A stretch of DNA of 64,000 nucleotides from contig JAKLFF010000001.1 of the NCBI GenBank assembly GCA_022711335.1, positions 405,754 through 469,753 on the forward strand, in the 5' to 3' direction. Each line of letters begins with the position of its first letter. The stretch's first letter is position 1. The stretch is from Patescibacteria group bacterium. GTDB lineage: Bacteria > Patescibacteriota > Minisyncoccia > Moranbacterales > UBA2206. Below are positions 7,781-45,863 of the stretch, piece by piece. The notes beneath the pieces are model-generated. The model had not been told where the DNA came from. It saw only the letters and a program-made list of their open reading frames with translations, and made no database searches. A program made the translations under genes and the position numbers.

Positions 7781-7840
7781 TGGAGGGTTTACCCTGTGGA
7801 ATTCCGCCGTAGGCGGACGGCTACGCCGTATTCCACAGGG
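7781..7840. repeat. Near-perfect palindrome (potential stem-loop), intergenic
   Basis: TACCCTGTGGAATTCCGCCGTAGGCGGACGGCTACGCCGTATTCCACAGGGTA has 13-bp arms (CCCTGTGGAAT/ATTCCACAGGG) and a GC-rich loop that contains a second small hairpin. Confidence 0.5.
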
Positions 7841-9190: not shown

Positions 9191-12100
9191 ATGATAAAGA
9201 TAGTGAAAAAAATATCGTCCGAAGAAAAATCCGAAAAAGAAATACAGACTCAAAAAATTCTTTCCAAAATGCGCCGGGAATCTGAAGAAGAGCAAGCCTC
9301 TGTTTTTGCCGCGTCTCTTAATCTTCCTTACATAGACACCAATCTTGTTCCAATTGCAACTGACGCCATAAAAACTCTGACGGAAGAAGAATCTAAAAAA
9401 TATAATCTGGCCATTATCCAAAAAATGGCCCGGATTGTGACAGCTGTTTCTACCGATCCATTTGAAAATAAAACCCAGGATTTTATCAAAAAACTTACCC
9501 GAGAAAATGGCTGGCAGATAAAAGTTTTTGTAGTTTCCCGCACCAATCTTGAACGCATTTGGGAAAAATACAAAAAAATCGTCTTTGTCGATTATCTTGA
9601 TCAGATGGCAGTAAACTTGTCGGGGGAAGAACTGGAAAATTTTGAAGAAGAACTTAAGGAGCTCATTACCCTGAAACAGAGGATATCAGAGCTTTCCACA
9701 ACCCAAATAATTGATATTATCATGGCCGGAGGCCATAAGCTTGGCGCCTCCGATATCCACCTTGAGCCTCAAGAAAAAGAAGTTAGGCTTCGATACAGAA
9801 TCGACGGAGTTCTCCAAGATATCGCCTTTTTCCCGCTTAATGTTTTCAAATCCATAACTTCAAGAATAAAAATGATGGGCGGCATGAAGATTAATGTCCG
9901 AGACATCGCCCAAGATGGAACTTTTAAAATTAAAATTAAGTCCAAAAAAGACGAAAAGAAAATTGATACCCGGGTTTCGATTATTCCTGGAAATTTCGGA
10001 GAGTCTATTGTAATCCGGCTTCTTAATCCTGAATCCGTAAATGTTAAATTGGAAACTCTGGGGCTTCGGGGTCTGGCTTATGAACAAATCCAAAAACAAA
10101 TAATAGCTCCCAATGGAATGATCTTAAATACCGGTCCGACCGGCAGCGGAAAAACGACTACGCTTTATGCCATCATCAACAAACTTAATGAGCCGGACAA
10201 AAAAATAGTCACTATTGAAGATCCGATTGAATACGAACTTCCCGGAATTTCCCAATCCCAAGTTGAAAAATCAAGAGGCTATACGTTTGCTTCCGGACTT
10301 CGCGCCATTGTCCGGCAAGATCCAGACATAATTCTAGTCGGAGAAATCCGCGACGACGAAACAGCTGATATTGCCATAAATTCAGCGCTTACCGGACATC
10401 TGGTGCTTTCATCGCTTCACACCAACAATGCTATCGGATCTATCCCAAGGCTTATTGAGCTTGGGACCAAACCTTCCCTCATCTCGCCGTCAATCAACGC
10501 AATCATCGGACAAAGGCTGGTGCGGAAGCTTTGCGATTGCAAAGAGGCTTATGAACCAGCCAAGGAATCCATTGAATCTCTAAAAAAAATCCTTTCAATT
10601 ATCTCTCCCAAATCTAAAATTGATGTTCCCAAAAATATTTTCAAACTTTATCGGGCCAAGGGATGCCCGAAATGCAATAGCCTGGGATATAAGGGACGCA
10701 TTGGAATATTCGAAGTTCTCACTATTAATCCGGAAATAGAAAAATTAGTCATGGATTTGGCATCAGAAACAGAGCTTACCTTAGCCGCGCTAGAATCAGG
10801 CATGATCACCATGCTCCAGGATGGAATCCTAAAAGCCTTGGAAGGGATAACTTCGATTGACGAAGTGAAAAGAGTAACCGGCGAAGGAGAATTTTTAGAA
10901 GATATTTATGAAAAACTGATGGCTGCAACATTGGGGAGATCAATTCTTATCGATTCCAAAAGTTATAAGTCCGCCAAAGATAATATTGGAAATTTTAAAA
11001 AATTTCAGAAAATTATTTCTAAAGCCAAAACCACTGAAATTGCAAAAATACTTTTTGCCGCCGCTTCTATTTTGGGTGTGGGAGATATTCACATTGAGCC
11101 CCAGGCAAAATCCGTGAAAATAAGATTTCGGATTGACGGGATCCTTCAAGATGTAGCATCTATTTCACTTACTGAATACCCAGCTTTTTTAGGAGAAATA
11201 AAATTGCTTTCCGGAGTGAAAACAGAAGTGCGCCAGGGAGTAGTTGACAGCCGCTTTACTATAAAATTTGACGAAGATATTAAAGATGCTCGTGAACCAG
11301 CCACTGATGTACGTGTTTCCATAATATTAGGCGGTTATGGAGAAACTGTAGTACTTCGTCTATTGTTTAAAACCAATCTCGAATACGATTTAAAAAAATT
11401 AGGCATCCGGCAGCAAAATCTGGACAAAATAATGGAAGAAATATCAAAGCCTAATGGCGTAATCCTCAATACCGGGCCAACTGGAAGCGGAAAAACTACG
11501 ACACTTTATAGTATTTTGAAGCATCTCAATAAGCCGGAGGCAAAAATAATCACCGTGGAAGACCCGATTGAATATCAAATGGAAGGAATTTTGCAAACGC
11601 CCGTCAATGACAAAGAAGGTTATACTTTTGCAACAGCTCTTCGCCAGCTTCTTCGCCAGAATCCAGATGTAATGATGATCGGAGAAATTCGAGATGATGA
11701 GACCGCTAAAATTGCCATGCAAGCCGCACTCACCGGACACTTAGTTTTTTCCACGCTTCATACGAACAGTGCTGCCGGAGCCGTAGCAAGACTGGCTAAT
11801 ATGGGAATATCGCCCCAGGATATCGCTATGGCCTGCGATGCTTTTATCGCCCAGCGCCTTATTCGAAGACTTTGCGATTGCAAAAAGAAAGTTAAACCGA
11901 CTGTCGAAGAAAAAGCTACAATTGAAAAAGTTTTGAAAACCATTTCCCAAAAATCCGGAGTGACTGTTCCAAAAATCGGAGATATTTACAAACCGGGAGG
12001 ATGCAAAAAATGCAATCACATCGGATACAAAGGCCGCATGACTGTAAGTGAAGTGTTTAAAATAACAAAAAACATTCAAGAGCTCGTCACTCGCGGAGCT

Positions 12101-12226: not shown

Positions 12227-12350
12227 TTGAATTTAGAATTGTGAATTTAGTATTTTGAATGGGAATATAGAATTTTGAATACTAGTGAATTCTAAATTCT
12301 TTATCCTTAACTCCCATTCTAAATTCTAAATACTAAATTCAAAATTCCAT
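12227..12350. repeat. AATTCTAAAT-family intergenic inverted-repeat element
   Basis: GAATTTAGAATT / GAATTTAGTATTT / GAATGGGAAT units are followed by their inverse complements (ATTCTAAATTC, CCCATTCTAAATTCTAAATACTAAATTC). The same motif family recurs at 9058-9090, 27270-27440, 35310-35345, 39695-39720 and 40210-40340, always just downstream of genes. Confidence 0.55.
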
Positions 12351-12782
12351 TAATAAAAGGCAGGTTCCTTTCTGTTTCTGTTTTGTTAACTATTAAAGGT
12401 AATCAGTGGTTCTGACAATAATCTGCAGGCAAGATCCCAAAGCAAGGCCCCGGGGGAAGAAACAGTGTCGAGGAACGGCACAGCCGAAACCAAACCGCCC
12501 ATGTCTGGACAAAAAAGTTTCCTAATTGAAGACAAAAGATAGAAGCCTCCAATTGCCTACAGTTTACTGCTAATCATCTAAAAAACGCGCAAATGCGATG
12601 TTTTTGATGACTTTAGAGCGTAGCATAACTTCCTTTTTTTGTCAAACGGGTATATAATAACACTAGGATTAATTTACAATGATCAATTATCAATTTACAT
12701 TGAATTAACAATTGATTAATTTTCAAAATTGAGTCATTGAAAATTGATTGAAAATTGTAAATTGAAAATTGAAAATTTACTG

Positions 12783-27269: not shown

Positions 27270-27448
27270 GGCTTTAAATCCAAAATTCTAATATCCCTGC
27301 CTACCGGCAGGCAGGTAAATTCTAAATAATTTCAAAATCATAATATTAAAATTCTAAATAATTCCATTTATTGTTTGGTAAATTTGAATTTTGGCAGTTG
27401 TGATTTATCTAGAATTTGATGCTTGAGATTTAGAATTTTTAACTATTT

Positions 27449-28276
27449 ATGACACTCTTCCAAGCCATCATCCTCGGCCTTGTCCAGGGTCTCGGAGAAT
27501 TTCTGCCCATCTCTTCCTCCGGACATCTGGTTATTCTCCCATGGCTTTTTGATTTTTCTGATCCCGGACTTTCTTTCGATATCGCGCTTCATCTTGGAAC
27601 ACTTATTGCCATCGTTCTATATTTTTGGAAAGATTTTGTAAATATTATTTCTGCTTCATTATCCTCCTCTCCCTTAGGGAGAGGATGTCCCAAAGGGACA
27701 GGAGAGGGAAAAAACTACAGCTATTCAAAGAATCTGCTTTGGCTCCTCATCCTCGCCACCATCCCTGGCGCGATTTTTGGACTGCTTTTCGAAAAACAAG
27801 CGGAAACAATTTTTAGAAACCCTCTGCTTATTGCTGGGACATTGTCTATTGCTGGCTTGGTTTTATATCTAGCCGACAAATATGCCCTGCACAAAAAAGA
27901 TATCAATGGTATAACAAAAAAAGACGCCGTTATTATTGGCATCTCGCAAGCTTTCTCTATTATTCCGGGAATTTCAAGAGCTGGGGCAACAATAACTTCC
28001 GGCTTATTTTTGGGTCTAAGCAGAACTGCCGCTGCCCGATTTTCTTTCTTGCTTTCCGCTCCGATTATCTTCGGCGCCACGATCATTAAGCTTCCTGATT
28101 TTTTAAAAAGCAGCGTTGGACTTTATGAAATCATTGCCATCATCACCGCCGCCGTCTCTGGCTATGTCGCTATCGCATGGCTTTTGAATTTTGTAGAAAA
28201 AGTCAGTTATAAAGTTTTTTTCTGGTATAGATTATTATTAGCCGTTATAATTGTTATAATTTGGTTTATAAAATAA
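27449..28276 (+). CDS. uppP: Undecaprenyl-diphosphatase UppP (BacA) with an in-frame palindromic insert
   Basis: MTLFQAIILGLVQGLGEFLPISSSGHL and ...SRAGATITSGLFLGL are both strong UppP signatures. The loop between helices carries extra residues SPLGRGCPKGTGEGK, encoded by the palindromic element at 27661-27712. Confidence 0.8.
   Translation: MTLFQAIILGLVQGLGEFLPISSSGHLVILPWLFDFSDPGLSFDIALHLGTLIAIVLYFWKDFVNIISASLSSSPLGRGCPKGTGEGKNYSYSKNLLWLLILATIPGAIFGLLFEKQAETIFRNPLLIAGTLSIAGLVLYLADKYALHKKDINGITKKDAVIIGISQAFSIIPGISRAGATITSGLFLGLSRTAAARFSFLLSAPIIFGATIIKLPDFLKSSVGLYEIIAIITAAVSGYVAIAWLLNFVEKVSYKVFFWYRLLLAVIIVIIWFIK
27661..27712. repeat. Intragenic palindromic element (family also present in fpg at ~55-108)
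   Basis: CCTCTCCCTTAGGGAGAGG + ATGTCCCAAAGGGACAG + GAGAGGG forms two consecutive hairpins. The core GAGAG[GA]ATGTCCC[GA]AAGGGACAG[AG]AGAGG is shared with 61-105. Confidence 0.6.
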
Positions 28277-28737: not shown

Positions 28738-28764
28738 AAAACAGCCTTGCGGTTGTTTTTTTAT
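28738..28764. terminator. Intrinsic terminator between convergent genes
   Basis: AAACAGCCTTGCGGTTGTTT hairpin (one G·U pair) followed by TTTTTTT. Confidence 0.45.
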
Positions 28765-29042
28765 TTTAATTTTATCTCCTTGACCGCCCCTTCGCCCAAT
28801 TCCTCATTCATTTTCCGAATTATTTTCTGCCGGTTTATCCACAGTTCCGACGCAAATGTTGGGCTTTCGCTTTTCACGAAAACAGTCCTGTTCTTGAAAA
28901 AATCCGCTCTCAATTTTTCCGCGCCGTAATTGCCGTATTCTTCCTTAATCACGCGCGAAAAAACATAAAAAACATCCTTGTCGGAAAAAGAATGCACAAC
29001 GGCCTTTTTATGTTTTTCTAAAAGGTTTTTTAGGGATTTCAT
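28761..29042 (-). CDS. DUF721/DciA-like small protein
   Basis: 93 aa. ...KNRTVFVKSESPTFASELWINRQKIIRKMNEELGEGAVKEIKLK matches the DUF721 pattern (V.V.S..WA.EL...L...IN..LG...V..I). Confidence 0.45.
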   Translation of the reverse strand: MKSLKNLLEKHKKAVVHSFSDKDVFYVFSRVIKEEYGNYGAEKLRADFFKNRTVFVKSESPTFASELWINRQKIIRKMNEELGEGAVKEIKLK

Positions 29043-30676
29043 ATTTTTTCCAAAACATAATATAAATTTTCATCCCCCTCGCCGGTTTTCAGTGGCAATT
29101 TTTCAATCTTTTTAATCTTAAACCCGGTCAGTTTCGCCAATTCTTCAATGTCTTCATGAGAATAGGCATATCTTGTCGCAAAATGCTGCCCGTCGGGAGA
29201 ATCATAAATGCTTCCGTACCGAAAATTCCGAATGCCCCGCTTTTTCATTTCACTAGCATATTCTTCCACCATTTTTTTGTACCCACCTTTTTCTCGATTG
29301 GGAATGTCAAAAATAAACTGTCCGCCCGATGCCAAAATCCGGTTGGCTTCACGGAATAATTGAACCTGATCAATGATGGAATAATCATGCAAAATATTTC
29401 TTCCCAGAGAATAAACTGTATTCATACTTTCATTTTGAATCGCATTATTGTGCCAGTCGCCCTGAAAAACTTTTGCAACATGACCAGTTTTTTCAATGGC
29501 TTCTTTAGTTTTCTCCACGTGCCTCTGGGTGAAATCATATCCAGATATATCGTATCCGTCTTTAGCTAGTTCAGTTATCAGTCTTCCCGCTCCGCAGCCC
29601 ATTTCCAACGCTTTTTCATCCTTTCTGATCAAAGATTCCAAAAGCTCTACTTCTTTTTCATTCATTCTTTCATTGACTTTATATTCTTCGAATTTTATAT
29701 TTTCCTCGTAAAATTTTTGCAGATTTGAAATGGCGATTTTGTCATGGTTGGGAGTAATTAATGATCTGGCGTAAGCATATTCCTCATTCATATCGGAACT
29801 ACCCTCAATACGCTCGTTAATTTTTTTGCGAACAATCTCTGCGCCATATGCTTCCGTCAAAACAAACATGATCACTTTCGCTTTTTCTATTGGTCCGAAT
29901 CTCAGATAATCGAATAAAGCTACGTCAAAATCAGGAGAAATTTCTTTTCGGCCTTTAAGGCATTCGGCTATTTCTCTAGCATGGTATCTGGAATAAAAAT
30001 CACGATCAATATAATTAAGAAGATAAAAGTCAGTCTTCCAATCGCCAATTTTCTCTTTGTGTTTTTTGAAATTCTTGAGTATCTCTGACGTTGTTCTGCC
30101 AAATATTTCGTGATAATCCATCATTTCTAGAATGGCATCGCGTTCCAAATTTTCCGGTTCTTTTTCTCCTCTTTCTTCCAAATCATCTTGATCTGGCTGA
30201 TGGATGCTCCGACAATATTCCAATCTTTGTCTTTCTTCTTCAGTATAATCATCGGGTTCGTAGTCGGAAAGATTGGCCCACATGGCTCTGTCCAGCCATT
30301 CTTTTCTTCTTTCCTTGTATAATTTTATAAGGTATTCTCCGAAAAATTCTGCCGCTCTTTTTGGATTATTTTCAAACATTTGGGAAATAAGCACCGCCTT
30401 GAAGTCTCCAAATTCATCAACGTCATTATCATAAAGATAATCAGTGTTGTATTTTTCCGGGAAATTATTTGAAATGAAAATTTCCCCGACCATTCGCCAA
30501 CCTGCTTGGCTTTTCAATATTTCATCCGCGTTTTTACCGCGCAATTCTTCAGGCAATCCGTCCTTTAATGTATCAAAAAATTCCTGTACGTCTTTCTCAT
30601 TAAAAATAACTTTCTCCTCTGGCAGAACGATTTCTTCTTTTTCAGAATTACCCTGAACCGGTATTTTTTCAAACAT
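29039..30676 (-). CDS. Class I SAM-dependent methyltransferase domain protein with a large N-terminal region of unknown function
   Basis: C-terminal motif I LEMGCGAGRLITELAKDGYDISGYDFTQ and a post-I region ...ILASGGQFIFDIPN. The N-terminal ~330 aa show no match. Confidence 0.55.
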   Translation of the reverse strand: MFEKIPVQGNSEKEEIVLPEEKVIFNEKDVQEFFDTLKDGLPEELRGKNADEILKSQAGWRMVGEIFISNNFPEKYNTDYLYDNDVDEFGDFKAVLISQMFENNPKRAAEFFGEYLIKLYKERRKEWLDRAMWANLSDYEPDDYTEEERQRLEYCRSIHQPDQDDLEERGEKEPENLERDAILEMMDYHEIFGRTTSEILKNFKKHKEKIGDWKTDFYLLNYIDRDFYSRYHAREIAECLKGRKEISPDFDVALFDYLRFGPIEKAKVIMFVLTEAYGAEIVRKKINERIEGSSDMNEEYAYARSLITPNHDKIAISNLQKFYEENIKFEEYKVNERMNEKEVELLESLIRKDEKALEMGCGAGRLITELAKDGYDISGYDFTQRHVEKTKEAIEKTGHVAKVFQGDWHNNAIQNESMNTVYSLGRNILHDYSIIDQVQLFREANRILASGGQFIFDIPNREKGGYKKMVEEYASEMKKRGIRNFRYGSIYDSPDGQHFATRYAYSHEDIEELAKLTGFKIKKIEKLPLKTGEGDENLYYVLEKI

Positions 30677-30724
30677 ATTTTTTGTGCTTAAGCAATTCTA
30701 TTCTATCAAATCCAGGGAAAAGAA

Positions 30725-30815
30725 AAAAGGCGAGCGGGTCGTGGCGTGGTAGCCTATCCCGGATGCTCGCCCTTAGCGGTTTCGGTTTTTTTAGGGAGAC
30801 CGAAAACTCCCGCCG
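30725..30815. repeat. Structured ~85-bp element, copy 1 (direct repeat of 31737-31827)
   Basis: GGCGAGCGGGTCGTGGCGTGGTAGCCTATCCCGGATGCTCGCC (stem GGCGAGC/GCTCGCC) + TTAGCGGTTTCGGTTTTTTTAGGGAGACCGAAAACTCCC (second stem GGGAG/CTCCC). Nearly identical to the copy 1 kb away. Confidence 0.6.
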
Positions 30816-30841
30816 GCTATTCAGGGGATGCCGGTCACTCC

Positions 30842-31093
30842 TCAAAAAATTTGTTTTTTTCGGCCGGTCCACCAGCCGACTTCCTCCTCCCGCACCTTCA
30901 AGATGCAGGAGATCTCGAAGTAGTCCTTGGGCTCTCCAAAGCCCTCAGACTCTTCGACTGTGTCTAAAAACAACTGTTCCTCGCCGGTGGCGAGGAACTT
31001 CTTCTCTAATTCCCTGACCACGTCGCCGTGGCCAGAGTCGAACAACAGGCCGTGTCGCAGCCCGTTGTCCTTGATTTCAAATTTCTTTCCCAT
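30842..31093 (-). CDS. Hypothetical small protein (GC-rich islet)
   Basis: 83 aa from the ATG at 31093, with a strong RBS (AGAAAGGAGAAAAATATG). The codon usage is visibly GC-richer than in flanking genes. Confidence 0.4.
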   Translation of the reverse strand: MGKKFEIKDNGLRHGLLFDSGHGDVVRELEKKFLATGEEQLFLDTVEESEGFGEPKDYFEISCILKVREEEVGWWTGRKKQIF

Positions 31094-31251
31094 ATTTTTC
31101 TCCTTTCTATGGGAAATTAACTTCACTTCTGAACCCGCAAAGCCAATCTTTACGGGTTCGGAATGAAGGGCAAAACTTTTGTCGTGGTAGACTCAAGTCT
31201 TGCCATTCAAGTGGTTCCCTTTTTATATACCGCTGGGACAGCGGTCGGAAA

Positions 31252-31590
31252 TCAGAGTTTTTCAAAAATCACTCTGATTTCCTTAATCCGGAACCATCCT
31301 GCGTGGCGAAAGCCAAGCAGTTTGGTTCCGTCGACCGGGTCCATGACCCGGTCATTCTTGCAAAAGAGCACGGGCTTGTCAGGCCCGGCTATCTGCAAAA
31401 ACTGCTGCTGCAGCGGAAGTGGGGCCACGATGGCCACCACGTCCGCCGCAGCGATCTCCTCGGCCAATTCATGCGCCGAAGAGATCGTCCGATTGACCTG
31501 GTGAACTTCCACCAGGCCAAAAATTCTTTTCAAGTCGGCCGATTGCTCGGCCGACATCTCATGCCTGGAAAACCACAAGACTTTCGTCAT
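31252..31590 (-). CDS. Hypothetical small protein (GC-rich islet)
   Basis: 112 aa from the ATG at 31590 (RBS AGGAAAGGAGAATCTCATG): MTKVLWFSRHEMSAEQSADLKRIFG.... No motif recognised. Confidence 0.4.
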   Translation of the reverse strand: MTKVLWFSRHEMSAEQSADLKRIFGLVEVHQVNRTISSAHELAEEIAAADVVAIVAPLPLQQQFLQIAGPDKPVLFCKNDRVMDPVDGTKLLGFRHAGWFRIKEIRVIFEKL

Positions 31591-31736
31591 GAGATTCTCC
31601 TTTCCTGCTGAACATTTCCCTTGCGCCGTTTCGCTCCCAACCACATCCTGATCAGCATTCAGGACTGGGCCAAGCGCAAAGAAAATTTTTTCACTTCCGA
31701 TTCTGCGAAGACAATCCTCACAGACTCGGAATGAAA

Positions 31737-31827
31737 GGCGAGCGGGTTGTGGCGTGGTAGCCTATCCCGGGTGCTCGCCTATTTTAGGTTTCGGTTTTTT
31801 TAGGGAGACCGAAAACTCCCTTGAGAG
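31737..31827. repeat. Structured ~85-bp element, copy 2
   Basis: GGCGAGCGGGTTGTGGCGTGGTAGCCTATCCCGGGTGCTCGCC + TATTTTAGGTTTCGGTTTTTTTAGGGAGACCGAAAACTCCC. A truncated third partial copy (CGGAATGAAGGGC) is at ~31140-31165. Confidence 0.6.
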
Positions 31828-32067
31828 CTACCACATCCGGTTGTCACACCGGGGGCAGCCCTCGTTCTTGACGTAGACATACTCGTCTACGCCAAATTCC
31901 TGCCCGCACCGCGGGCAGGAGAAAAAATTTTCATAGACTGCCAGATGGCAGTCTATGCATTCCCTCGCCTTCCCGGCGAGGGAAAAAATCTGGTGTGGAC
32001 AATCGTCCACACCAGATAAAATTCCTTCACTGCTGCAAATTTCGCAGCAGACGAATTTCTTTGCCAT
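31828..32067 (-). CDS. Zinc-ribbon (multi-CxxC) small protein
   Basis: 79 aa from the ATG at 32067 (perfect RBS GAAAGGAGGAACGCC-ATG): MAKKFVCCEICSSEG...CPHQ...CIDCH...CPRCGQEF...CPRCDNRMW, with four CxxC pairs. GC-rich. Confidence 0.5.
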   Translation of the reverse strand: MAKKFVCCEICSSEGILSGVDDCPHQIFSLAGKARECIDCHLAVYENFFSCPRCGQEFGVDEYVYVKNEGCPRCDNRMW

Positions 32068-32326
32068 GGCGTTCCTCCTTTCATGGCAAATGTTAACCTT
32101 TCCCCAGCCAGTGTAACTCCCGACCAGTCCGACACAACGTCGGACCCGGGCCATAGCTGGTTTGTCCAGCACCAACTACTCCTCACTAACAAAAGTTTGT
32201 TTAATAAAGAAAAGTTGGTGCTGGATTTATTCGCATGTGCCCATTCGTTAGGGCTATTCGCATACTTCAACCGAGAGAAAATAAAAGCTAATTGAAATAT
32301 GTAATAATTTATGCTAAGCTATTGCT

Positions 32327-32632
32327 ATGAGTACGGAGCAAATAGAACAAAAACTTATAGAAGCCATTGAAAAAGATCCTCATAAAAAGGACATGAAAAA
32401 AGTGTCTCTTTTCGGTTCTTATATCTATGGCCAACCCCGTGAAGATTCTGACGTGGATGTTTTAGTGGAATTTGAACCTAATTCTAGTATTAGTCTTTTT
32501 GACTTGGTTCATATCCGCCGAAATTTTTCTGAATTTATCGGGAAAAAAGTTGATCTTCTGACACCCTCCGCTCTTAGCAAGTATTTCCGCGATGAAGTAC
32601 TAGCCAAAGCTAAAACCATTTATGAAAAATGA
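32327..32632 (+). CDS. Nucleotidyltransferase (MNT/MntA-type) antitoxin
   Basis: ...VSLFGSYIYGQPREDSDVDVLVEF has the GS...D.D pol-beta NTase signature. Its stop overlaps the start of the HEPN gene. Confidence 0.7.
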   Translation: MSTEQIEQKLIEAIEKDPHKKDMKKVSLFGSYIYGQPREDSDVDVLVEFEPNSSISLFDLVHIRRNFSEFIGKKVDLLTPSALSKYFRDEVLAKAKTIYEK

Positions 32633-32954
32633 TCTCGTTTTTATAGGACATATTCAGGACTCTATCAATAACATCAATGAGTTTATTGGAAACTCTGATT
32701 TTGAAAGTTTTTCTAAAAATAAACTAGTGCTTAGCGGCGTAGTTCACGAATTTGAAATTATTGGCGAAGCCTCCAATAAAATCAGCCGTGAATTTTGCGA
32801 TTCTCACCCGGAAATACCCTGGAGAGACATGATTGATATGCGAAATGTGCTTATTCATGAATATTTTGGTATTATTCCTGAATCCGTCTGGGAAGCTTAT
32901 AAAAAAGACCTCCCCAAGCTTAAAACGGCCATAGACCAAATACTCATTTCTTAA
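32622..32954 (+). CDS. HEPN-domain (DUF86/HepT-type) toxin
   Basis: ...DMIDMRNVLIHEYFGI carries the R-x(4-6)-H HEPN motif. Translationally coupled to the MNT gene. Confidence 0.7.
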   Translation: MKNDLVFIGHIQDSINNINEFIGNSDFESFSKNKLVLSGVVHEFEIIGEASNKISREFCDSHPEIPWRDMIDMRNVLIHEYFGIIPESVWEAYKKDLPKLKTAIDQILIS

Positions 32955-33609
32955 CTTCCATTTTTTCTCGGTTGAATAATATTCAATTTTCAAAGATCCG
33001 TTTTGCGGATTTTTTGATTCCACAAAAATGCCAGTGAGTGTTCATCCATTAAAGAGAAGAGAGATTTTCTTTAGCTAATGAATAAATAATACTCACTGAC
33101 ATTTTTTGACTCTCTTCTCTAGACTTTTAGAAAGCCTGCTCCTGATTCCTACCTCACCCTGCCCTCTCCTTATAAAGGAGAGTGGGATTTGATAAGAACC
33201 AAGGACCACTTTCTATCCCGACGATGGCTCGTTGGGAGAGAAATAAGCTTATTGCCATTCATCCAGCTATCTTTTTTTGGAACGCATGTATGCGTTCCCT
33301 ACAATCTCTCTTCCCTTTGGATGAATTTAGTATGCTGCTTATTTCCAGTGCCATTTTATGATCCTTACCGCCCTTTCAGGCGATTTGGATACATATTATG
33401 TATATTTAATGTTCTTGGTTACGTGTCTCTCTCCTCTTTGGGCGATATTTCATCGTAACGGGCCATTATATCAGATATTACACTAAATGTCAATTTAAAT
33501 AGACTTATACTATTTTTATCCTATCGTAAATAAGCCATTTATACCTTTAATTTGACAAATTATGGCTTATTTGCTATACTATAAATGTTGACTTATTTTT
33601 TCGACATAT

Positions 33610-34374
33610 ATGAATCTATCTGACCAACTTACTCAATTTGGCCTTAATGATAAGCAAGCCATTGTATATCTGGCTCTTTTGGAGCTAGGCGCTAGTTCTG
33701 CTATTAATCTAGCTAAAAAGACCGGTATTTTGCGCACTACTGTCTATGACGTGCTTATCGAACTGGAAAAAAAAGGGCTTTTAAGCCAGACCAAAAAAGG
33801 CAAAAAAAGGCTTTTTCTGGCTGAAGAACCGGAAAATCTGGAAAATATTTTGGAAGAAAAGAGGGAAAAGCTGGCCAGTCTTATGCCGGCACTCAAAGGG
33901 CTTCTCAATACTTCCGGAACCAAGCCGGTAATCCGCTATTACGAAGGCTTGGAAGGCATCAAAGAAGTTTACCGAGATACCTTGAAATATAAAGGCGAAC
34001 TGGTGGCATTTGTAACGGAAAATATCATAAATAAACTGGGTCAGGATTTTGCTGACGAATATAAAGCAAAAAGAGTTAAATCACAAATTACGGTGCGCGT
34101 CATCGGGCCGGATACCGAAGAAATTATTGAGTATAAAAAAACAGACCAAAAAGATCTGAAAGAAACGCGGCTGGTTTCCAAAGAAAAGTTTCCCTTTTCC
34201 ATTGAAATGAATATTTACGGCAACAAAATCGCTTTTATGAGTTTTTCTGAATCTTTAGGGCTTATTGTAGAAAGCAATGAAATCGCTAAAAATATGAAAT
34301 TTATGTTTGAATTGGCCTGGAAGGGTGCCGGAAAAGAAATTGAAATTAAAAAAGAAGATGAATATTGGAGCTAG
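33610..34374 (+). CDS. TrmB-family transcriptional regulator
   Basis: FGLNDKQAIVYLALLELGASSAINLAKKTGILRTTVYDVLIELEKKGLL wHTH + C-terminal TrmB effector-like domain. Confidence 0.55.
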   Translation: MNLSDQLTQFGLNDKQAIVYLALLELGASSAINLAKKTGILRTTVYDVLIELEKKGLLSQTKKGKKRLFLAEEPENLENILEEKREKLASLMPALKGLLNTSGTKPVIRYYEGLEGIKEVYRDTLKYKGELVAFVTENIINKLGQDFADEYKAKRVKSQITVRVIGPDTEEIIEYKKTDQKDLKETRLVSKEKFPFSIEMNIYGNKIAFMSFSESLGLIVESNEIAKNMKFMFELAWKGAGKEIEIKKEDEYWS

Positions 34375-35309
34375 GATTTTGCTTTGAGATAATTAAAAAC
34401 GCTCCTCACAGCAATGGCACCTTCGGCGGCCGCGGTAATGACTTGGCGGAATTTGTTTGATCCGTCGGTTATGTCTCCGGCCGCAAAGATGCCAGGAACC
34501 GAAGTGGAGCCGTCTGATTTTATTTTTATATACCCGTCTTTGTCGCTTTTAATATCCAAGTCATCCGCATAATTTATATATGGATCCGATCCGGCTTCAA
34601 TAAAGAGTCCGCTTATTTCAAGCAAACTGCTATTTTTATGTGGATTATCCAGTTCAACCCTTTCCAGTTTTTCCTGGCCGGATATTTTCACTACGTTGGT
34701 GTTATAAATAACTTCTATTTTCTCATTCTTCTTGATTGAATCAGCCCAAAAAGGCTCGCAGCGAAGCTCGCTTTTACGATAAATTATATAAACTTTCTTA
34801 CAGATATCAGCCAGATATAATGCCGCGCCTGCCGCGCTGTTGGATCCGCCAATCACTCCAACAGTCTTGTTTTTATAGAAAAAACCGTCGCAAGTGGCGC
34901 AATAGGAAACGCCTTTTCCCGCAAATTCTTTTTCTCCTAAAATGTCCAGCTTTCTCCTCTTCATGCCAGTGGCTAGTAACACAGTTTTAGTTTTTAAGGC
35001 TTCGTTATTTTCTAGTTCTGCAATAAATCTCCCTTCCTCTTCTTTTTTTATATTTTTAACCAAGCCTGGGATTATTTCTGCGCCGTACTTTTTAGCATGT
35101 TCTCCTAGTTTTTTTCCAAGCTCGGCTCCAGTCAGGTTTTCAATGCCTGGATAATTGTCGATTAGATGAGCTTCGGAGATCTGTCCGCCCAAAATCTGCC
35201 CGATAATAGCATGTTTTATCCCGTAGCGGGAAGCATAAATAGAAGCAGAAAGCCCCGCCGGACCAGAACCTATTATAATTAAATCATAAGATTTATCCAT
35301 AGCTTTCAT
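34371..35309 (-). CDS. trxB: Thioredoxin-disulfide reductase
   Basis: FAD site DLIIIGSGPAGLSASIYASR, redox-active CATCDG, NAD(P) site VGVIGGSNSAAGAALYL, and C-terminal IFAAGDITDG. Confidence 0.85.
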   Translation of the reverse strand: MKAMDKSYDLIIIGSGPAGLSASIYASRYGIKHAIIGQILGGQISEAHLIDNYPGIENLTGAELGKKLGEHAKKYGAEIIPGLVKNIKKEEEGRFIAELENNEALKTKTVLLATGMKRRKLDILGEKEFAGKGVSYCATCDGFFYKNKTVGVIGGSNSAAGAALYLADICKKVYIIYRKSELRCEPFWADSIKKNEKIEVIYNTNVVKISGQEKLERVELDNPHKNSSLLEISGLFIEAGSDPYINYADDLDIKSDKDGYIKIKSDGSTSVPGIFAAGDITDGSNKFRQVITAAAEGAIAVRSVFNYLKAKS

Positions 35310-35338
35310 TCAAAATTCCCAATTCTAAATTCAAAATT

Positions 35339-36496
35339 CTAATTTTTAATTGGCATCACGATATAGGTAAAATCATGTAAAACTTCGCCGGTTTGTTCAT
35401 TTATTTCCTTTAAAGCGATTGGCGTTGATTCACTGTTCATAAGAAAAGCCACTTTGGAAGTTGAGATGCTATTAATTCCATCTAAAAGATATTTTGAATT
35501 TAAAATTACTTCTTGAGATGGTCCAGAAACGTCAAATTTGAGCTCTGTTGAGTTTTCTCCAGTTTCCGCACTGCTAGCGCCTATAAAAATTTTCTTTACT
35601 CCAGAGTCAATTTTAATCGAAATCTCTCCTGATTTTCCCGAAGCAAAAATATTAGCCATTTTTACCGCGTTTTGAAACACGCTTTTTTCCAAAACTACCC
35701 TGGTTTTATAATCTTTTGGCATTATATGCTTATATTCAGGATATTTTCCATTAATCAACCTTGAAACAATTTTAGTCTCTTCTATTTCAAAAAAAATTTG
35801 CCCGGATTCAATCGTTATTTTCACATCACATTCTTCATTATTAGAAATAATTCTCATTACTTCATTTAATGTTCCAAATGGAATAATAATACTGTCTTTT
35901 TTGTTTATATAAGCCTCAAACACCTCTTTATTTATATTTTCCTTGTTTATACTAATTCTACTTTCAGAAAGACGAAAACTATCAGTTGAAGCAAAAAATA
36001 TCTCTTTTTGGCTTAAAATAAGGTTTATTCCAGTAAGCTCTTGTCTGGCTTCATTTTGAGCCACAGACACCATTTCCTTAGATAAGATATTTTTTAGATC
36101 AATACTATTAATATTTAATAGATATTCACTGCTTTTTTTAGGAATTAATGGAAAATCATCAGCTGATACCCCTTTTATAATTGCCTTAAAAGAGCCACTT
36201 TTTATTTTTATTCCCTGTTCAACACTTTCTATTAAAACATTATCTCCTTGAGGAAGATTATTAGAAAAACTACTAATTATTTTCGCTGGAATAGTTATTT
36301 TACCTTCTTTTTCCACTTTAACTCCCACTTTTACCTGAGCTCCCATTTCTAAATTTGTCGCGGAAAACACTAAAAACCCTTTTTTTGCTTCAAATAAAAT
36401 ATTATTTAGTATAGGCAAGGTGTTTTGCTTAGAAACAATCCTTTCTGTGTTGTATATCGCTTTTTTAAAGTTATCTTGAGTACAAATTAATTTCAT
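35339..36496 (-). CDS. dnaN: DNA polymerase III beta subunit (sliding clamp)
   Basis: 385 aa; MKLICTQDNFKKAIYNTERIVSKQNTLPILNNILFEA, three-domain length, positioned immediately downstream of dnaA. Confidence 0.85.
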   Translation of the reverse strand: MKLICTQDNFKKAIYNTERIVSKQNTLPILNNILFEAKKGFLVFSATNLEMGAQVKVGVKVEKEGKITIPAKIISSFSNNLPQGDNVLIESVEQGIKIKSGSFKAIIKGVSADDFPLIPKKSSEYLLNINSIDLKNILSKEMVSVAQNEARQELTGINLILSQKEIFFASTDSFRLSESRISINKENINKEVFEAYINKKDSIIIPFGTLNEVMRIISNNEECDVKITIESGQIFFEIEETKIVSRLINGKYPEYKHIMPKDYKTRVVLEKSVFQNAVKMANIFASGKSGEISIKIDSGVKKIFIGASSAETGENSTELKFDVSGPSQEVILNSKYLLDGINSISTSKVAFLMNSESTPIALKEINEQTGEVLHDFTYIVMPIKN

Positions 36497-39721: not shown

Positions 39722-40210
39722 ATGGAAAAGAATAATGAAGATCTTGAAATGGAAAAAAAAATAAAAAGAATTATTGAAGAGATGATTTCAAAAATGGGGT
39801 TCAAAGGAAGCGTGGAAATAATAAAGAAGGAAGAAGGTGAAAAAAAATCATATGTTTGCAATGTAAAAACACAAGAATCCAATTTCTTAATCGGACAATA
39901 TGGAATCAATTTGCAGTCGCTGCAGCACATCGCTCGGATGCTGGTCAGAAAAGAAATTTCGGAGAGAATTAATTTTATTATTGACATTAATTCTTATCGG
40001 ATGGATAAAAATGATTCAATTGTAAAATTGGCTAAAAATTTGGCTGAGGAAGCTCTTCAGGAAAAGAAAGCCGTAGTATTGCGTCCTATGGGCCCCTATG
40101 AACGCAGAATTGTCCATCTTGAACTGGCCAAAGACGATAGGATTAAAACAGAAAGCATAGGAGAGGGTGAAGACAGAAGAGTTGTAATCAAGCCAATAGA
40201 CCTTATTTAA
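39722..40210 (+). CDS. Jag/KhpB-like RNA-binding protein (KH + R3H domains)
   Basis: C-terminal R3H: VLRPMGPYERRIVHLELAKDDRIKTESIGEGEDRRVVIKP. The KH-like middle region is present. Confidence 0.7.
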   Translation: MEKNNEDLEMEKKIKRIIEEMISKMGFKGSVEIIKKEEGEKKSYVCNVKTQESNFLIGQYGINLQSLQHIARMLVRKEISERINFIIDINSYRMDKNDSIVKLAKNLAEEALQEKKAVVLRPMGPYERRIVHLELAKDDRIKTESIGEGEDRRVVIKPIDLI

Positions 40211-40340
40211 AAGAATTTAGAATTGGGAATTTCGAATTTAGAATGGGAATATGGAGCTTAGATCTTGAAGGAAATTAAAACCCAGTTTATTTTTAGTAGT
40301 TTTATTCTAAATTCTAAATACTAAATTCAAAATTCTATTT
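40210..40340. repeat. AATTCTAAAT-family intergenic inverted-repeat element
   Basis: AAGAATTTAGAATTGGGAATTTCGAATTTAGAATGGGAATATGGAG ... TTTTATTCTAAATTCTAAATACTAAATTCAAAATTC. Confidence 0.5.
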
Positions 40341-43410: not shown

Positions 43411-44647
43411 TTTTATCCTGCTTTTCTTAATCTACCTGCCTTTTCAGCTGGCGCTTAATCCAACCGAGGGTATCGATCTGGCTTCAATCAGGGTTATTAT
43501 CCTCCTCCTTTTTCTGCTATGGCTGGCTAAGGGACTCAAAAATAAAAAGGTGCTCATAAAGAACAATTCGAGCACAGTTTTAATTATTTTTTTTCTAGCT
43601 TTTAATTTAATTTCAATCGCTGTTTCGGGAAATTTAGACTGGTCAGTAAGGAAGCTCCTGTTTCTTTTTTCAATTTTTCCCGTTTATTTTGTGTTTTCTG
43701 ATATCATTTCCGATAAAAATAAGATGGAAAAAGCGGCAAAGGTTTTAGTCTGGAGCGGGAGCGCCGCCGCTTTTTTGGGAATCATCCAGTTTTTGTTACA
43801 ATTTTTGATAGGTCTTGAAAAAACTTATAAAATTTGGGCGAATTTCATCATCTGGCCTTTTTTGGGAAACAATTTCAGCGAAGCGGTTCTTAAAAATTCC
43901 AGCTGGCTTGTGAATATTTCAGGAAAAACGATTCTTAGGGCAACTTCTACTTTCCCAGATCCCCATATGCTTGCTTTTTTTCTAGGAATCTTGATTCCCT
44001 TGTCGCTGGGATTATTTCTAAAATCAAAAAAACCGCTATACCTGTTTTTTTTCACAGTTTTATTTGTTGGCGATGTCCTAACTTTTTCTAGAGGCGGATA
44101 TATTGGGCTTTTAGCGGGAGCTCTGGCAATGTTTTTTTCACTTTGGAAAAAATTCGGCCTAAAATATAAAATAACTTTATTTTTAGCAGCAGGGATGATA
44201 GCTGGCGTTCTGCTTATCCCCGGTCCGATTTCAACCAGATTTATTTCTAGTTTGCATCTGAATGAAGGTTCAAATGCCGGAAGAATTGAGATGTGGCAAA
44301 GAGCCGGAGAAATTATTTTAGACAAGCCGCTTTTTGGAACGGGGATTGGCAATTATCCCCTTGAAATCAAACCTGACGCCAGTTATCGCGATCCTATTTA
44401 TGCGCATAATACCTATTTGGATGTTGCTGTGGAAACAGGAATAGCCAATGCCATTATTTGGATAACGCTTCTGGCGGGCTCCGCTTTTATTTTTATAAAA
44501 AAAGCGAAAAAAGAGCCTTTCTTTTTTTGGCTGGCGATAAGTCTGGTTATTTTTTTTGCTCATTCTTTGGTTGAAACGGCTATTTATTCACCGGTTGTAC
44601 TGATATTGCTTTTGGTAATAATAAGTTTTACAAATGTTGAAGAGTAA
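43403..44647 (+). CDS. O-antigen ligase/polymerase-family membrane protein (Wzy_C-like)
   Basis: 414 aa polytopic with a large loop and ...FSRGGYIGLLAGALAMFF..., typical of the O-antigen ligase family. Confidence 0.5.
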   Translation: MFNFILLFLIYLPFQLALNPTEGIDLASIRVIILLLFLLWLAKGLKNKKVLIKNNSSTVLIIFFLAFNLISIAVSGNLDWSVRKLLFLFSIFPVYFVFSDIISDKNKMEKAAKVLVWSGSAAAFLGIIQFLLQFLIGLEKTYKIWANFIIWPFLGNNFSEAVLKNSSWLVNISGKTILRATSTFPDPHMLAFFLGILIPLSLGLFLKSKKPLYLFFFTVLFVGDVLTFSRGGYIGLLAGALAMFFSLWKKFGLKYKITLFLAAGMIAGVLLIPGPISTRFISSLHLNEGSNAGRIEMWQRAGEIILDKPLFGTGIGNYPLEIKPDASYRDPIYAHNTYLDVAVETGIANAIIWITLLAGSAFIFIKKAKKEPFFFWLAISLVIFFAHSLVETAIYSPVVLILLLVIISFTNVEE

Positions 44648-44696
44648 AATGTCCGCCAAAGGCGGATCCGCCTTTGGCGGAAAGAAAATATTTAAC

Positions 44697-45863
44697 ATGG
44701 AAAATCTAATTTATTTGGCAGTTATCTTTTTGCCGGCATATCTCGTCCGGTTTAAAATATTTGGTATCCCGACTAATATTCTAGAAATGCTGATTTTGAT
44801 AATTTTTATTAGATGGATTATTGGTTGTGGTAGAGACGCATTGCAATGCGTCTCTACGATAGGCTATAAAAAATATATTATACCGATATTTTTTATTTTT
44901 CTAGGGCTTGCCATTTCAACATTAGCTAACGGGGGGTATGCGGCAGGCCTTGGCATAATCAAAAGCTGGTTCTTTTTTCCAATGCTATTTGTTTTTTTGG
45001 CAAGTCAGATTTTAGATAAAGAAAAAATAATAAATGTTTATAAATCCCTTTATTTATCCGCTTTTTTAGTTTCATTGATATCTTTGGGATATTTGTTTTC
45101 GGGGCATATTACATATGATGGAAGATTGCAGGGGTTTTTCAATTCGCCGAATTATTTGGCGATGTACCTTGCGCCGGCGCTGATAATGTTGGTGCAAGTT
45201 CAAAGTTTTCCATCGAAGGCGGATCAGCTTATGGCTGAAAAGCTAAAAGTTTTGATTTTATTATCCGGATCAATTATATTAATTACTTTTTATTTTACTT
45301 ACTCTTACGCTGCTTGGATTTCTGTGATTTTGAGCCTAATTATGGTTTCTATTATTAAAAACAAAGCGCTGGTTAAAAATAAAACAATAATCATTTTAGT
45401 TTTGTTAGCTGCGTCGTTATTTATAATCCAGCTAAATAGTGAAAAATTAATTAATCTTAAAAATTATAATCGATCTTCCTTGGAATCAAGGATAATAATC
45501 TGGAAATCAGCTGAAAAAATGTTGGAGAATAACTGGGTTTTTGGAATCGGACCGGGGAATTTTCAGGAAAAATATCTTGAGTATCAAAAATATTACCCGC
45601 CTTATCTCGAATGGGCGGTTCCCCACCCGCACAACTTATACCTGGCTTTTTGGCTCTACGGAGGAGTTTTAGGGATTTTGGGATTTATCTTTCTGCTTGG
45701 TTTTTGGCTTGAGGATATTATTAAAAAAAGCGACAGCATAGTTAAATTTATCGCTTTTAGCATAATGTTCTATATTTTGATCCACGGAGCGATTGATACG
45801 AATTATTTCAAAAATGATCTGGCGATAATTTTTTGGCTGAATTTTCTGATTTTTAAAATATAA
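44697..45863 (+). CDS. O-antigen ligase-family membrane protein (WaaL/Wzy-like)
   Basis: Polytopic. ...HPHNLYLAFWLYGGVLGILGFIFLLG... is the O-antigen ligase signature region. The start was set at 44697 because the upstream part of the track ORF contains a 28-bp perfect palindrome (44651-44678). Confidence 0.55.
   Translation: MENLIYLAVIFLPAYLVRFKIFGIPTNILEMLILIIFIRWIIGCGRDALQCVSTIGYKKYIIPIFFIFLGLAISTLANGGYAAGLGIIKSWFFFPMLFVFLASQILDKEKIINVYKSLYLSAFLVSLISLGYLFSGHITYDGRLQGFFNSPNYLAMYLAPALIMLVQVQSFPSKADQLMAEKLKVLILLSGSIILITFYFTYSYAAWISVILSLIMVSIIKNKALVKNKTIIILVLLAASLFIIQLNSEKLINLKNYNRSSLESRIIIWKSAEKMLENNWVFGIGPGNFQEKYLEYQKYYPPYLEWAVPHPHNLYLAFWLYGGVLGILGFIFLLGFWLEDIIKKSDSIVKFIAFSIMFYILIHGAIDTNYFKNDLAIIFWLNFLIFKI

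Follow-up and report, generated by a model that had tools for sequence, protein, structure and literature searches.

The gene uppP, encoding an undecaprenyl-diphosphatase of the BacA family, is located on the plus strand at positions 27449-28276 of the window (the whole 64-kb stretch of DNA that was analysed), and was present in the ORF list as an intact reading frame of 275 aa. A MAG of Candidatus Moranbacteria encodes a protein that carries PF02673 and matches UppP at 100% identity, Pfam BacA was found on the UppP orthologues, and residues 3-273 of UppP align to the E. coli UppP structures 5OON and 6CB2. The gene is host to an element of 49 nt (27660-27708, plus strand), which lies in frame within it and has a GC content of 0.57 (57% versus 38%). 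The element corresponds to residues about 71-87 of the protein (LSSSPLGRGCPKGTGEG), and its in-frame translation contains SSSPLGRGCPKGTGEG.

In the uppP copy the order of the parts, all on the plus strand, is 5' TATCC, block 1, loop 1, block 2, a hairpin in loop 2, and block 3. Block 1 (27665-27673) is the pyrimidine block TCCTCTCCC, loop 1 (27674-27676) is TTA, and block 2 (27677-27685) is the purine block GGGAGAGGA, of which block 1 is a perfect 9-bp complement; the first hairpin is accordingly TCCTCTCCC-TTA-GGGAGAGGA at 27665-27685. The second hairpin, TGTCCC-AAA-GGGACA (27686-27700), replaces the 3-nt loop of the canonical BoxC/TMECO repeat. A preliminary description of this locus had reported a palindromic element in frame in uppP and had called it a double hairpin. 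The sequences quoted there are present at 27665-27685 and 27686-27700 and both hairpins exist, but a third part had been overlooked: block 3, AGGAGAGGG (27700-27708), repeats block 2 in exact mirror order, with 9/9 purine-motif triads. The conserved blocks are without a stop codon in all six frames. The only flanking sequence that the copies described below have in common is a (T)ATCC prefix, present in most of them, including intergenic ones. A chance origin of the element is excluded because shuffles of the window are expected to contain 0.00 copies of the 29-nt pattern from the preliminary description and 0.05 copies of the TGTCCC-N3-GGGACA core.

Three copies were seen in the window, in uppP, in fpg and between genes, giving a density of ~1 per 21 kb, and two of the three are inside intact ORFs. 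The second host gene, fpg/mutM (1-367, minus strand), is represented by its N-terminal 122 codons, as the gene runs off the window start; its translation begins MPELPEVQT, and loci L087-L089 of the same species yielded full-length fpg, which encodes 300 aa and has Fapy_DNA_glyco, H2TH and zf-FPG domains. The copy in it, the second full one, is antisense to fpg (52-99, plus strand) and has 8/8 mirror triads. It consists of TCTCTCCT (57-64), GTCTG, AGGAGAGA (70-77), TGTCCCGAAGGGACA (78-92) and AGAGAGGT (92-99), with the 3' end after TGTCCCGAAGGGACA reading GAGAGGT, and is translated in Fpg, in the antisense orientation, as SHLSVPSGHLSSDRREG. A copy in fpg had been claimed previously and is real; the degenerate pattern of the preliminary description fits the uppP copy only, because the fpg copy has 1-nt indels. 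The third copy (33150-33188, minus strand) is intergenic and of the canonical type lacking the loop-2 hairpin. Its parts are CTCTCCTT / TAT / AAGGAGAG / GGCAGG / GTGAGGTA, with a loop 2 of 6 nt and 8/8 triads, and in a 97% identical strain this copy is absent and a different palindrome is found at the same intergenic site. Canonical copies with a short loop 2 in the same genomes also include one at 11206 of locus L083 (loop 2 of 2 nt). A palindrome of another kind, tagged with GTAG, is located at 44830-44857 of the window.

The mirror relationship of block 3 was not confined to the uppP copy. Over 16 distinct copies, with G.GC, A.AT and T.AT counted as valid triads, the score was 143/145 when block 3 was read as a mirror, versus 109/145 for the best direct-repeat reading. 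The three blocks covary, as in the sets ...CCTT/AAGG.../...GGTA, ...CCC/GGG.../...GGG and ...CCT/AGG.../...GGT. When 20000 positions of the window were drawn at random, 42 had a perfect mirror block within 60 nt, and the chance rate of a mirror block is 0.2-0.6% per site. The three-way covariation is comparative evidence for the triple-strand symmetry itself as the conserved feature; some other constraint could in principle be the cause of the mirror symmetry. In many copies block 3 carries T in place of A, and it is also found in copies without the loop-2 hairpin. We considered whether the trailing GAGAGG could be a target duplication produced by insertion of the second hairpin; this was ruled out by the mirror rule, by T opposite A and by the hairpin-less copies.

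The loops are more variable than the blocks. Loop 1 is 3-5 nt long. Both full copies of the window have a hairpin of 14 nt as loop 2, and in orthologues the length of this loop is 14-34 nt. The stem of the loop-2 hairpin varies between copies and is still palindromic, with a constant TGTC...GACA base; the stems found were TGTCCC, TGTCGCG, TGTCGGC, TGTCACTG and TGTCCGCC, and other copies have a TGGC... type or none. The UppP orthologues that bear the insert have kept blocks 1-3 with differing loop-2 hairpins, palindromic every time.

Alignment of UppP orthologues supported the proposal that the insert is lineage-specific. The element is carried by 16 of the 120 best relatives and is lacking from relatives at 73-79% identity, and in a loop-masked NJ tree of UppP the carriers are scattered among insert-free sequences. 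One orthologue, P0026, has the full element, and its sister P0034 has hairpin 1 only. Most orthologues of Fpg are also without the element. In related Patescibacteria the element was found in frame in uppP, fpg, comF, dus and trxB, the host families being verified with Pfam as BacA, Fpg, ComF-like PRTase, Dus and TrxB-like reductase. Further copies are present elsewhere in this genome, and genes other than uppP carry them as well. The in-gene copies are read in three sense frames and in the antisense orientation, and the encoded peptides differ with frame and orientation (SPLGRGCPKGTGEG, SLLNKERCPEGTER, GRDVPKGQ and LSVPSGHLSS). A host-protein survey with a concatenated six-frame query against a 5.8-billion-protein index gave no candidates.

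A search of 185,579 species genomes with a GAGAG-flanked hairpin pattern gave 16 matches, of which 15 also have the upstream pyrimidine block and loop, neither of which was specified in the pattern. The match in Syntrophobacteraceae (L005) has no block 1, and its palindrome is probably due to chance. The element is not restricted to CPR: the same hairpin-bearing variant is present in MAGs of at least four other lineages, among them Proteobacteria, Myxococcota and Melainabacteria. Inverted pairs of elements occur in loci of Thermomonas and Polyangiaceae, and were noted at L001, L012/L013 and L037. Outside E. coli the matches are in MAGs throughout, and assemblies made independently (JGI, ENA, NCBI and Logan) are consistent with one another. 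A metagenome scan with UppP as the single query returned mostly distant UppP loci, the close ones being L016-L022 only.

The place of the element in the protein had been raised for checking and was analysed with AlphaFold, which gave a pLDDT of <50 at residues 76-89 of UppP and coil at 72-95; in this model the element peptide sits in a disordered surface loop. The preliminary description counted 15 extra residues here, which is only an approximate figure: compared with the loop of orthologues that lack the insert, this one has 7-9 aa more, and the excess is only this large because the loops of those orthologues hold other, non-homologous repeat sequence. In Fpg, orthologues have 10-14 residues at the element site versus 24 here, and solved Fpg structures, which have ~25 residues fewer there, align on either side of the insert. 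Apart from the insert, both UppP and Fpg are intact. Comparison with orthologues suggests that the element was inserted into these coding sequences; none of the CDSs yielded an empty and a filled site that could be paired with clean boundaries. As to whether copies are always a multiple of three in length, the core measures 43-49 nt, which is not a multiple of three, and the CDS boundaries are blurred because insert-free orthologues have other repeats at the site.

We consider the element to be a copy of the BoxC/PIT/TMECO repeat family that carries a hairpin in loop 2 and behaves as selfish or unstable DNA, and we put the probability of this at roughly 0.75. The repeat family is known; the TGTC...GACA hairpin in loop 2 and the location inside genes set these copies apart from the family as described. 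A single DNA strand could fold back twice to give a hairpin and a purine-motif triple helix, with loop 2, normally 3 nt, bearing its own small hairpin (TGTC-stem-loop-stem-GACA); such folding may take place in vivo. The selfish or unstable character would account for an element that is multi-copy, differs between close strains and is both intergenic and intragenic. Within genes it would survive only where harmless, so that the in-gene copies that persist may be those that restore the frame and sit in unstructured loops, and its translation would yield a passenger peptide with a sequence set by frame and orientation. The insert would be neutral for the two enzymes.

A different account of how the copies spread would make the element a non-autonomous transposon of RPE-like or MITE-like type, with CCTCTC...GAGAGG as terminal inverted repeats, a transposase acting in trans, a target duplication, and only the in-frame insertions surviving. 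Copies in frame in several unrelated genes, the multi-copy state and strain variability would fit this, the outer CCTCTC/GAGAGG can be read as inverted repeats, and RPEs are the textbook case of such behaviour. However, neither flanking direct repeats (target-site duplications) nor a sharp 3' boundary were found in any of 17 copies, so that the combination of terminal inverted repeats and target-site duplication which marks a MITE is lacking. The 3' "inverted repeat" obeys the mirror rule (A.A/T.A/G.G) and not plain complementarity to block 1, and the T for A seen in block 3 of many copies breaks a terminal inverted repeat, not a triplex. The length, 49 nt, also differs from the about 100-150 bp of RPEs. 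Viral contigs and plasmids contained no copy of the element, and BoxC copies in E. coli have no association with mobile elements (PMC4666352). A transposon of this type is therefore improbable.

Slightly less probable again is an origin of the REP/REPIN type, in which the TGTC...GACA hairpin would be recognised as ssDNA by a RAYT/IS200-like tyrosine (HUH) transposase and the triplex-like blocks would be the landing site. The constant TGTC/GACA base with a variable upper stem resembles the arrangement in REPs tagged with GTAG/CGTC, inverted element pairs occur in the Thermomonas and Polyangiaceae loci, the same genome has the GTAG-tagged palindrome, and intragenic REPs are known. Against this, the tag of the element is neither GTAG nor CGTC, no free-standing TGTCCC-N3-GGGACA is present in the window, and other copies have the TGGC... 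hairpin or none.

The hairpins could alternatively have been conserved at an orthologous site through selection for function, not selfish persistence, for example as an mRNA or DNA structure of uppP that makes translation or replication pause between two transmembrane helices. [quoted passage not shown] Such a function is nevertheless quite unlikely, as the element is antisense in fpg, is read in three different frames in other genes and is also intergenic, and the majority of UppP orthologues are without it. ViennaRNA, whose model excludes triplexes, predicted only the two hairpins, with modest RNA fold z-scores of -1.8 to -2.4; Rfam searches, run on the whole window at gathering score and on the element region at E<=10, returned no meaningful match, and no tRNA was found near the element. 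The mirror block would have no role in an RNA fold, because purine-motif triplexes are not formed in RNA (Holder et al., PMC4666352). Finally, an ordinary host-evolved UppP loop or an assembly artefact with an incidental palindromic look is highly improbable: loop length does vary in all UppP proteins, E. coli included, but other genes, intergenic DNA and other phyla show an identical architecture of 43-49 nt, the copies outside uppP refute it, the same uppP insert is present in independent assemblies at 97-100% identity, and zero copies are expected in shuffles.

Knowledge of BoxC/PIT elements goes back to the 1990s; they are abundant, show striking conservation and were described as strictly intergenic. 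To our knowledge they have no accepted function, known enzyme or way of spreading, and we know of no transposase, terminal duplication or donor. A hairpin-bearing BoxC/PIT/TMECO variant offers a new handle on them, since the same motif is present in frame within genes that are essential, in a lineage with minimal genomes, whole hairpins are tolerated in its loops with the three-way block symmetry kept, unrelated lineages have it in one and the same loop of UppP, and its form is near-identical across phyla. A more far-reaching and rather doubtful proposal is that BoxC/PIT repeats are one pan-bacterial class of self-propagating structured ssDNA, with loops that serve as landing pads for small palindromes, and that horizontal transfer has carried the form with the loop-2 hairpin between five or more distant lineages, namely Patescibacteria, Melainabacteria, Gammaproteobacteria, Myxococcota and UBA10199. 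If this were true, nesting and turnover within coding loops of gene-dense CPR genomes would be a generator of protein-loop diversity, and the natural series of insertions, replacements and deletions would make the mobility mechanism readable. Independently of this proposal, peptides of the SPxGRG...GEG type are repeat-derived, as are the AT-rich repeat peptides that occupy loops of CPR proteins; neither should be taken for functional motifs, and both probably contribute to truncated gene calls, as seen for fpg.

Several known systems resemble the element in part. The very small dispersed repeats (SDR) of Nostoc/Anabaena, as reportedly described by Elhai and colleagues in 2008, are palindromic units of ~20-30 nt that enter other repeats and occasionally genes; their nesting would be analogous to that of the hairpins in loops 1 and 2, and the sequence family is different. 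Mitochondrial GC clusters, double-hairpin elements and repetitive hairpin-forming elements (Paquin et al. 2000 and yeast work, in Erpenbeck et al. 2009, PMC2800124), are, as treated in that source, short GC-rich single, double or triple hairpins in AT-rich compact genomes, found in intergenic DNA and in variable regions of protein and rRNA genes and kept in transcripts, with their mobility mechanism debated. They are organellar and unrelated in sequence, and are not known to have a mirror (triplex) block. REP/REPIN elements are palindromes of 20-40 bp with a fixed tetranucleotide (GTAG/CGTC) at the base of a variable stem (PMC3733652; Bertels and Rainey 2011, PMC3116915), often in inverted dimers and occasionally intragenic (Di Nocera et al. 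2013, PMC3733652), whereas the element has TGTC/GACA at its stem base and a hairpin that forms part of a three-block motif.

The preliminary description had assigned the element to the RPE type of selfish DNA. RPEs, according to the summary of Ogata et al. 2000 in PMC10969869, are about 100-150 bp long and form Rickettsia-specific families with a conserved encoded peptide. The likeness is one of behaviour: a repeated palindromic element is present in frame in housekeeping genes that are unrelated to one another, at sites which the protein fold tolerates, and is translated there. As the loop is not shared by all distant orthologues and further copies do exist, the RPE-like behaviour stands, with an element that is dispersed, in frame, lineage-specific and located in a disordered loop. 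The structural part of the assignment does not, since the element is 49 nt long, no terminal duplication was found, there is no sequence relation and no conserved peptide, several frames and both orientations are used, and the three-block motif includes a triplex-type mirror block.

The closest correspondence is with the BoxC, PIT (potential intrastrand triplex) or TMECO repeats of E. coli and other Proteobacteria (Holder et al. 2015, Nucleic Acids Res, PMC4666352), the subject of earlier work by Bachellier/Bergler and by Hoyne and Maher 2000, as cited in that paper. A defining property of the family is a stable purine-motif triplex formed by the isolated strand, as assessed by CD, NMR and footprint, and 23 copies are present in E. 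coli K-12, all intergenic (PMC4666352). The family is recognised by a stem of 6-15 nt with <=1 mismatch, a loop 1 of 3-6 nt and a loop 2 of 3 nt (TTA or CCG). The element differs in having a hairpin of 14-34 nt as loop 2 instead of 3 nt, and the published search would have missed this variant because only loops of 1-6 nt were allowed. It differs also in having copies in frame in genes and not only in intergenic DNA, and in a Patescibacteria/CPR host, with a density in the 64-kb window well above the ~1 per 200 kb of K-12. Both are GC-rich, with no known transposase. The family is dispersed and multi-copy, varies in copy number between close strains and commonly has inverted pairs; the three copies in 64 kb, the different palindrome in the 97% identical strain and the inverted pairs at L001, L012/L013 and L037 may reflect a similar habit here. 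The three-block mirror arrangement, in which a pyrimidine block is followed by a 3-6-nt loop, a complementary purine block and a mirror purine block, is common to both, and the block sequences are nearly the same (CCCTCTCCC / GGGAGAGGG / GGGTGAGGG). When tCCTCTCCC / GGGAGAGGa / aGGAGAGGG is set against the published TMECO pattern, CCCTCNCCC-N3-6-GGGNGAGGG-N3-GGGNGAGGG (PMC4666352), the outermost triad is the sole difference. Moreover, CCTCTCCC-TTA-GGGAGAGGA of uppP is identical at 20/20 positions to the E. coli BoxC/TMECO copy between gabP and gabT, the surroundings of which are a classic inverted TMECO pair.

The element within uppP (27449-28276, plus strand, a 275-codon ORF; a Candidatus Moranbacteria MAG encodes an identical protein) is a repeat of 49 nt at 27660-27708, with a G+C content of 57% against 38% for the window. 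Its first hairpin, TCCTCTCCC-TTA-GGGAGAGGA (27665-27685), is composed of block 1, loop 1 and block 2, and is followed by a second hairpin, TGTCCC-AAA-GGGACA (27686-27700), directly after which stands GGAGAGGG. In the frame of the gene the element is translated as ...SLSSSPLGRGCPKGTGEGK.... The preliminary description, which had reported an in-frame double hairpin here, was correct on the sequences and their frame; the matches expected in a shuffled window were 0.00 for its pattern and 0.05 for the hairpin core. The second copy that it had placed in fpg was likewise recovered at 57-99, antisense to the gene (minus strand, MPELPEVQT...), and is translated as SHLSVPSGHLSSDRREG. Both hairpins were found to exist, but a description in two parts is incomplete: a third block, AGGAGAGGG (27700-27708), is the exact mirror of block 2 (27677-27685), as AGAGAGGT is the mirror of AGGAGAGA in the fpg copy. 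Neither the conserved blocks nor the loop-2 hairpin contain a stop codon in any frame; stop codons in the element come from the variable first loop alone.

All pyrimidine-armed hairpins of the window and of every locus retrieved from other genomes (L-numbers) were examined for a block further downstream that satisfies the purine-motif triad rule, under which a G is faced by G and an A by either A or T; dozens of elements were recovered with scores from 8/8 to 12/12. Over 16 distinct copies the rule holds at 143 of 145 positions, while a direct-repeat reading of them reaches 109 of 145 at best. A perfect mirror block no more than 60 nt away is expected by chance at 0.2-0.6% of random window positions. 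Blocks 1, 2 and 3 covary across copies, as in TCTCTCCTT/AAGGAGAGA/AGAGAGGTA, TCTCTCCC/GGGAGAGA/AGAGAGGG, TCCTCTCCC/GGGAGAGGA/AGGAGAGGG, TCCTCCCCC/GGGGGAGGA/AGGTGGGGG and CTCCTCCCCTTT/AAAGGGGAGGAG/GAGGAGGGGTTA. These copies establish the architecture of the family and its three-way covariation.

A full-text literature search for GGGAGAGGG led to the BoxC/PIT/TMECO family (Holder et al. 2015, PMC4666352), whose pattern is 5'-CCCTCNCCC N3-6 GGGNGAGGG N3 GGGNGAGGG. Members form a purine-motif intrastrand triplex in vitro, number 3610 copies across 262 proteobacterial genomes, frequently occur as inverted pairs and are associated with locally unstable loci; they have no transposon, phage or plasmid link and no known function (PMC4666352). 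In blastn against complete E. coli genomes, the uppP element gave a 20/20 nt match to its first hairpin in the gabP-gabT interval, at a classic inverted TMECO pair in which the copy reads CCCTCTCCC-TTA-GGGAGAGGA-CCG-GGGTGAGGG. Together, the pattern match and the E. coli hairpin identify the window element, at the level of sequence, as a BoxC-type motif in which the hairpin T-GTCCC-AAA-GGGAC takes the place of the 3-nt second loop. The search of Holder et al. permitted loop lengths of 1-6 nt only (PMC4666352) and would therefore miss this hairpin-bearing form. Canonical copies with a short second loop were located at 33150-33188 of the window (minus strand, intergenic) and at 11206 of L083.

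GTDB, at one genome per species, was scanned with the fixed pattern GAGAG-N0-3-TGTCCC-N3-GGGACA-N0-3-GAGAG only. This gave 16 matches at 15 loci, and the upstream TCTCTCC block and loop, absent from the search pattern, were present in 15 of the 16. The hosts were Patescibacteria/Parcubacteria/Saccharibacteria MAGs, a Gastranaerophilales MAG, a Polyangiaceae MAG, Thermomonas and Pseudoxanthomonas MAGs, and a UBA10199 'Deltaproteobacteria' MAG with four copies. No match to the element was obtained in viral contigs and plasmids.

For each copy a spanning ORF was sought and its product verified by Pfam. Copies in frame were carried by genes for BacA/UppP, Fpg, a ComF-like phosphoribosyltransferase (L002), a dihydrouridine synthase (L004) and a thioredoxin-reductase-like flavoprotein (L018), and in-gene copies are read in all three sense frames and on the antisense strand. 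Three contigs of the same species carry a complete fpg (300 aa) that retains the zinc finger and all three domains. The remaining copies are intergenic, several of them immediately upstream of genes. At window 33610-34374, at L083 17881-18645 and in L014, three different genomes, a TrmB-family regulator gene has a triplex motif upstream of it, at varying orientation and distance; this placement may be a coincidence or a conserved intergenic niche.

The AlphaFold2 model of UppP (48 orthologues; mean pLDDT 86) falls below pLDDT 50 exactly at residues 76-89, in a coil (72-95) flanked by helices 60-71 and 96-121; the loop at the equivalent position of E. coli UppP (5OON) is shorter. We infer that the insert loop is cytoplasmic, because published topology puts the active site facing the periplasm. 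When Fpg is aligned with its Lactococcus counterpart (1TDZ), residues 1-80 and 119-299 are matched, and the 38 residues in between stand where 1TDZ has 13.

The claim that the uppP insert is lineage-specific was borne out by alignment of orthologues: the SPxGRG...GEG signature is present at the loop in 16 of the 120 best UppP relatives, and the relatives P0009, P0014 and P0017, at 73-79% identity, are without it. In a loop-masked neighbour-joining tree without support values, carriers are interspersed with non-carriers. Five carriers compared at the DNA level retain blocks 1-3, and their loop-2 hairpin is variable yet palindromic in all, the forms including TGTCGCG-TCTT-CGCGACA, TGTCCGCC...GGCGGACA, whose loop contains a further, AT-rich hairpin, and versions with a TCCGCC-AAT-GGCGGA core. 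The sister proteins P0026 and P0034 differ, at the protein level only, by exactly the hairpin and block 3, and in the UppP of L037 (43% identical) the same loop is filled by two canonical motifs, inverted, with the ORF intact. Other orthologues carry other CPR repeats in their UppP and Fpg loops instead (AT-rich FQISN/NTKY/KSQISN units, a CCTGCC...GGCAGG palindrome, a 7-nt tandem repeat), and a clean empty site was found in none of the UppP and Fpg orthologues compared. To judge from these comparisons, both loops are tolerant dumping grounds, in which the element resides in frame. The 'insert-free' UppP loop of L017 and L018 (L018, approximately 10200-10260) holds the 7-nt unit AATCGGA four times in tandem, translated as NRKSEIGNRK. 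Among the Fpg relatives P0126-P0149, many fpg calls in related genomes, some of them on contigs of 10-45 kb, end or change frame exactly at the variable loop that follows HLKMTGHLLVK, a pattern suggesting that the gene call, or the gene itself, is often disrupted by repeats at this position.

Close strains differ at such sites. In a strain 97% identical to the window (L016), a different palindrome stands in place of the 33150-33188 motif, and a neighbouring GTAG-type palindrome is swapped for one with a different stem. At a homologous intergenic site (window 33279-33298, L016 approximately 11650) the palindromes are unlike, GGAACGCA-TGTA-TGCGTTCC and GGACAGAT...ATCTGTCC, with CTAC after both; one hairpin was exchanged in place for another. 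The region 29759-32949, which has no counterpart in L016, looks like a strain-specific island: its G+C is higher (0.47), perfect GC-rich hairpins are numerous in it, a terminator-like repeat of 67 nt stands at both 30726 and 31734, the minus strand carries small zinc-ribbon ORFs, and nothing in Rfam matches it.

Further repeats were observed. AT-rich repeats of AAATTCTAAAT/AATACTAAAT-like units are intergenic at 12229-12353, 27270-27400, 35292-35353 and 40207-40339, and this unit type is translated in UppP/Fpg orthologue loops as FQISNKF, NTKYKILNTKY and KSQISN. The palindrome CCTGCCT...AGGCAGG represents a second GC-rich family. Its window copies (27296-27315, 57932-57952) are intergenic; elsewhere it is nested in triplex motifs (in loop 1 of L014, between the blocks of L018, and in L022), and P0072 and P0100 have it in their UppP loops, where it is translated as CLAGRQ. 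A third family, TCCGCC-N3-4-GGCGGA (5657-5672, 7803-7817, 44652-44681), has its 5657-5672 copy in frame within the 5'-nuclease domain of polA (3347-6052, minus strand; NPPAGG); its core is the loop-2 hairpin of the L084 UppP element and is also intergenic in UBA10199 (L007). The perfect palindrome GTAGAGACGC-ATTGCAAT-GCGTCTCTAC (44830-44857), which is REP-like and bears a GTAG tag, is in frame in ORF 44634-45863 (plus strand), which encodes an O-antigen-ligase-like membrane protein (GRDALQCVST). The cumulative GC skew of the whole window is lowest near 38 kb; dciA (28761-29042) adjoins uppP, and dnaN is close by in syntenic loci. The window or its vicinity may contain the replication origin.

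We propose that the element would work at the DNA level, through a strand able to fold into a hairpin and triplex, that it would spread or be exchanged, and that it would be translated along with its host gene as a neutral passenger. Palindromes nested in the element are confined to loop 1 or loop 2 (L007, L014, L018, L022, L083), and nesting in either keeps the three blocks in register, as would be expected if the fold were under selection or if single-stranded loops were targeted. Among the alternatives, the Rickettsia palindromic element (RPE) likened to this repeat in the preliminary description holds as an analogy of behaviour and fails as one of identity. An RPE or MITE with a transposase, a REP/RAYT-type hairpin and a functional pause site are all argued against by the mirror rule with T opposite A, the mixed frames and orientations, and the finding of no target duplications. 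An ordinary UppP loop is opposed by the same observations and, as are the other three, by the majority of orthologues being without the element.

The element itself belongs to the already known BoxC/PIT/TMECO kind. It differs from that family in that loop 2 of the uppP copy is a hairpin rather than 3 nt, and in that copies here also lie in frame within genes, whereas the 23 copies of E. coli K-12 are all intergenic (PMC4666352). New with respect to the searchable literature are the structured second loop, the near-identical element in distant phyla and the repeated in-frame occurrence in CPR housekeeping genes.
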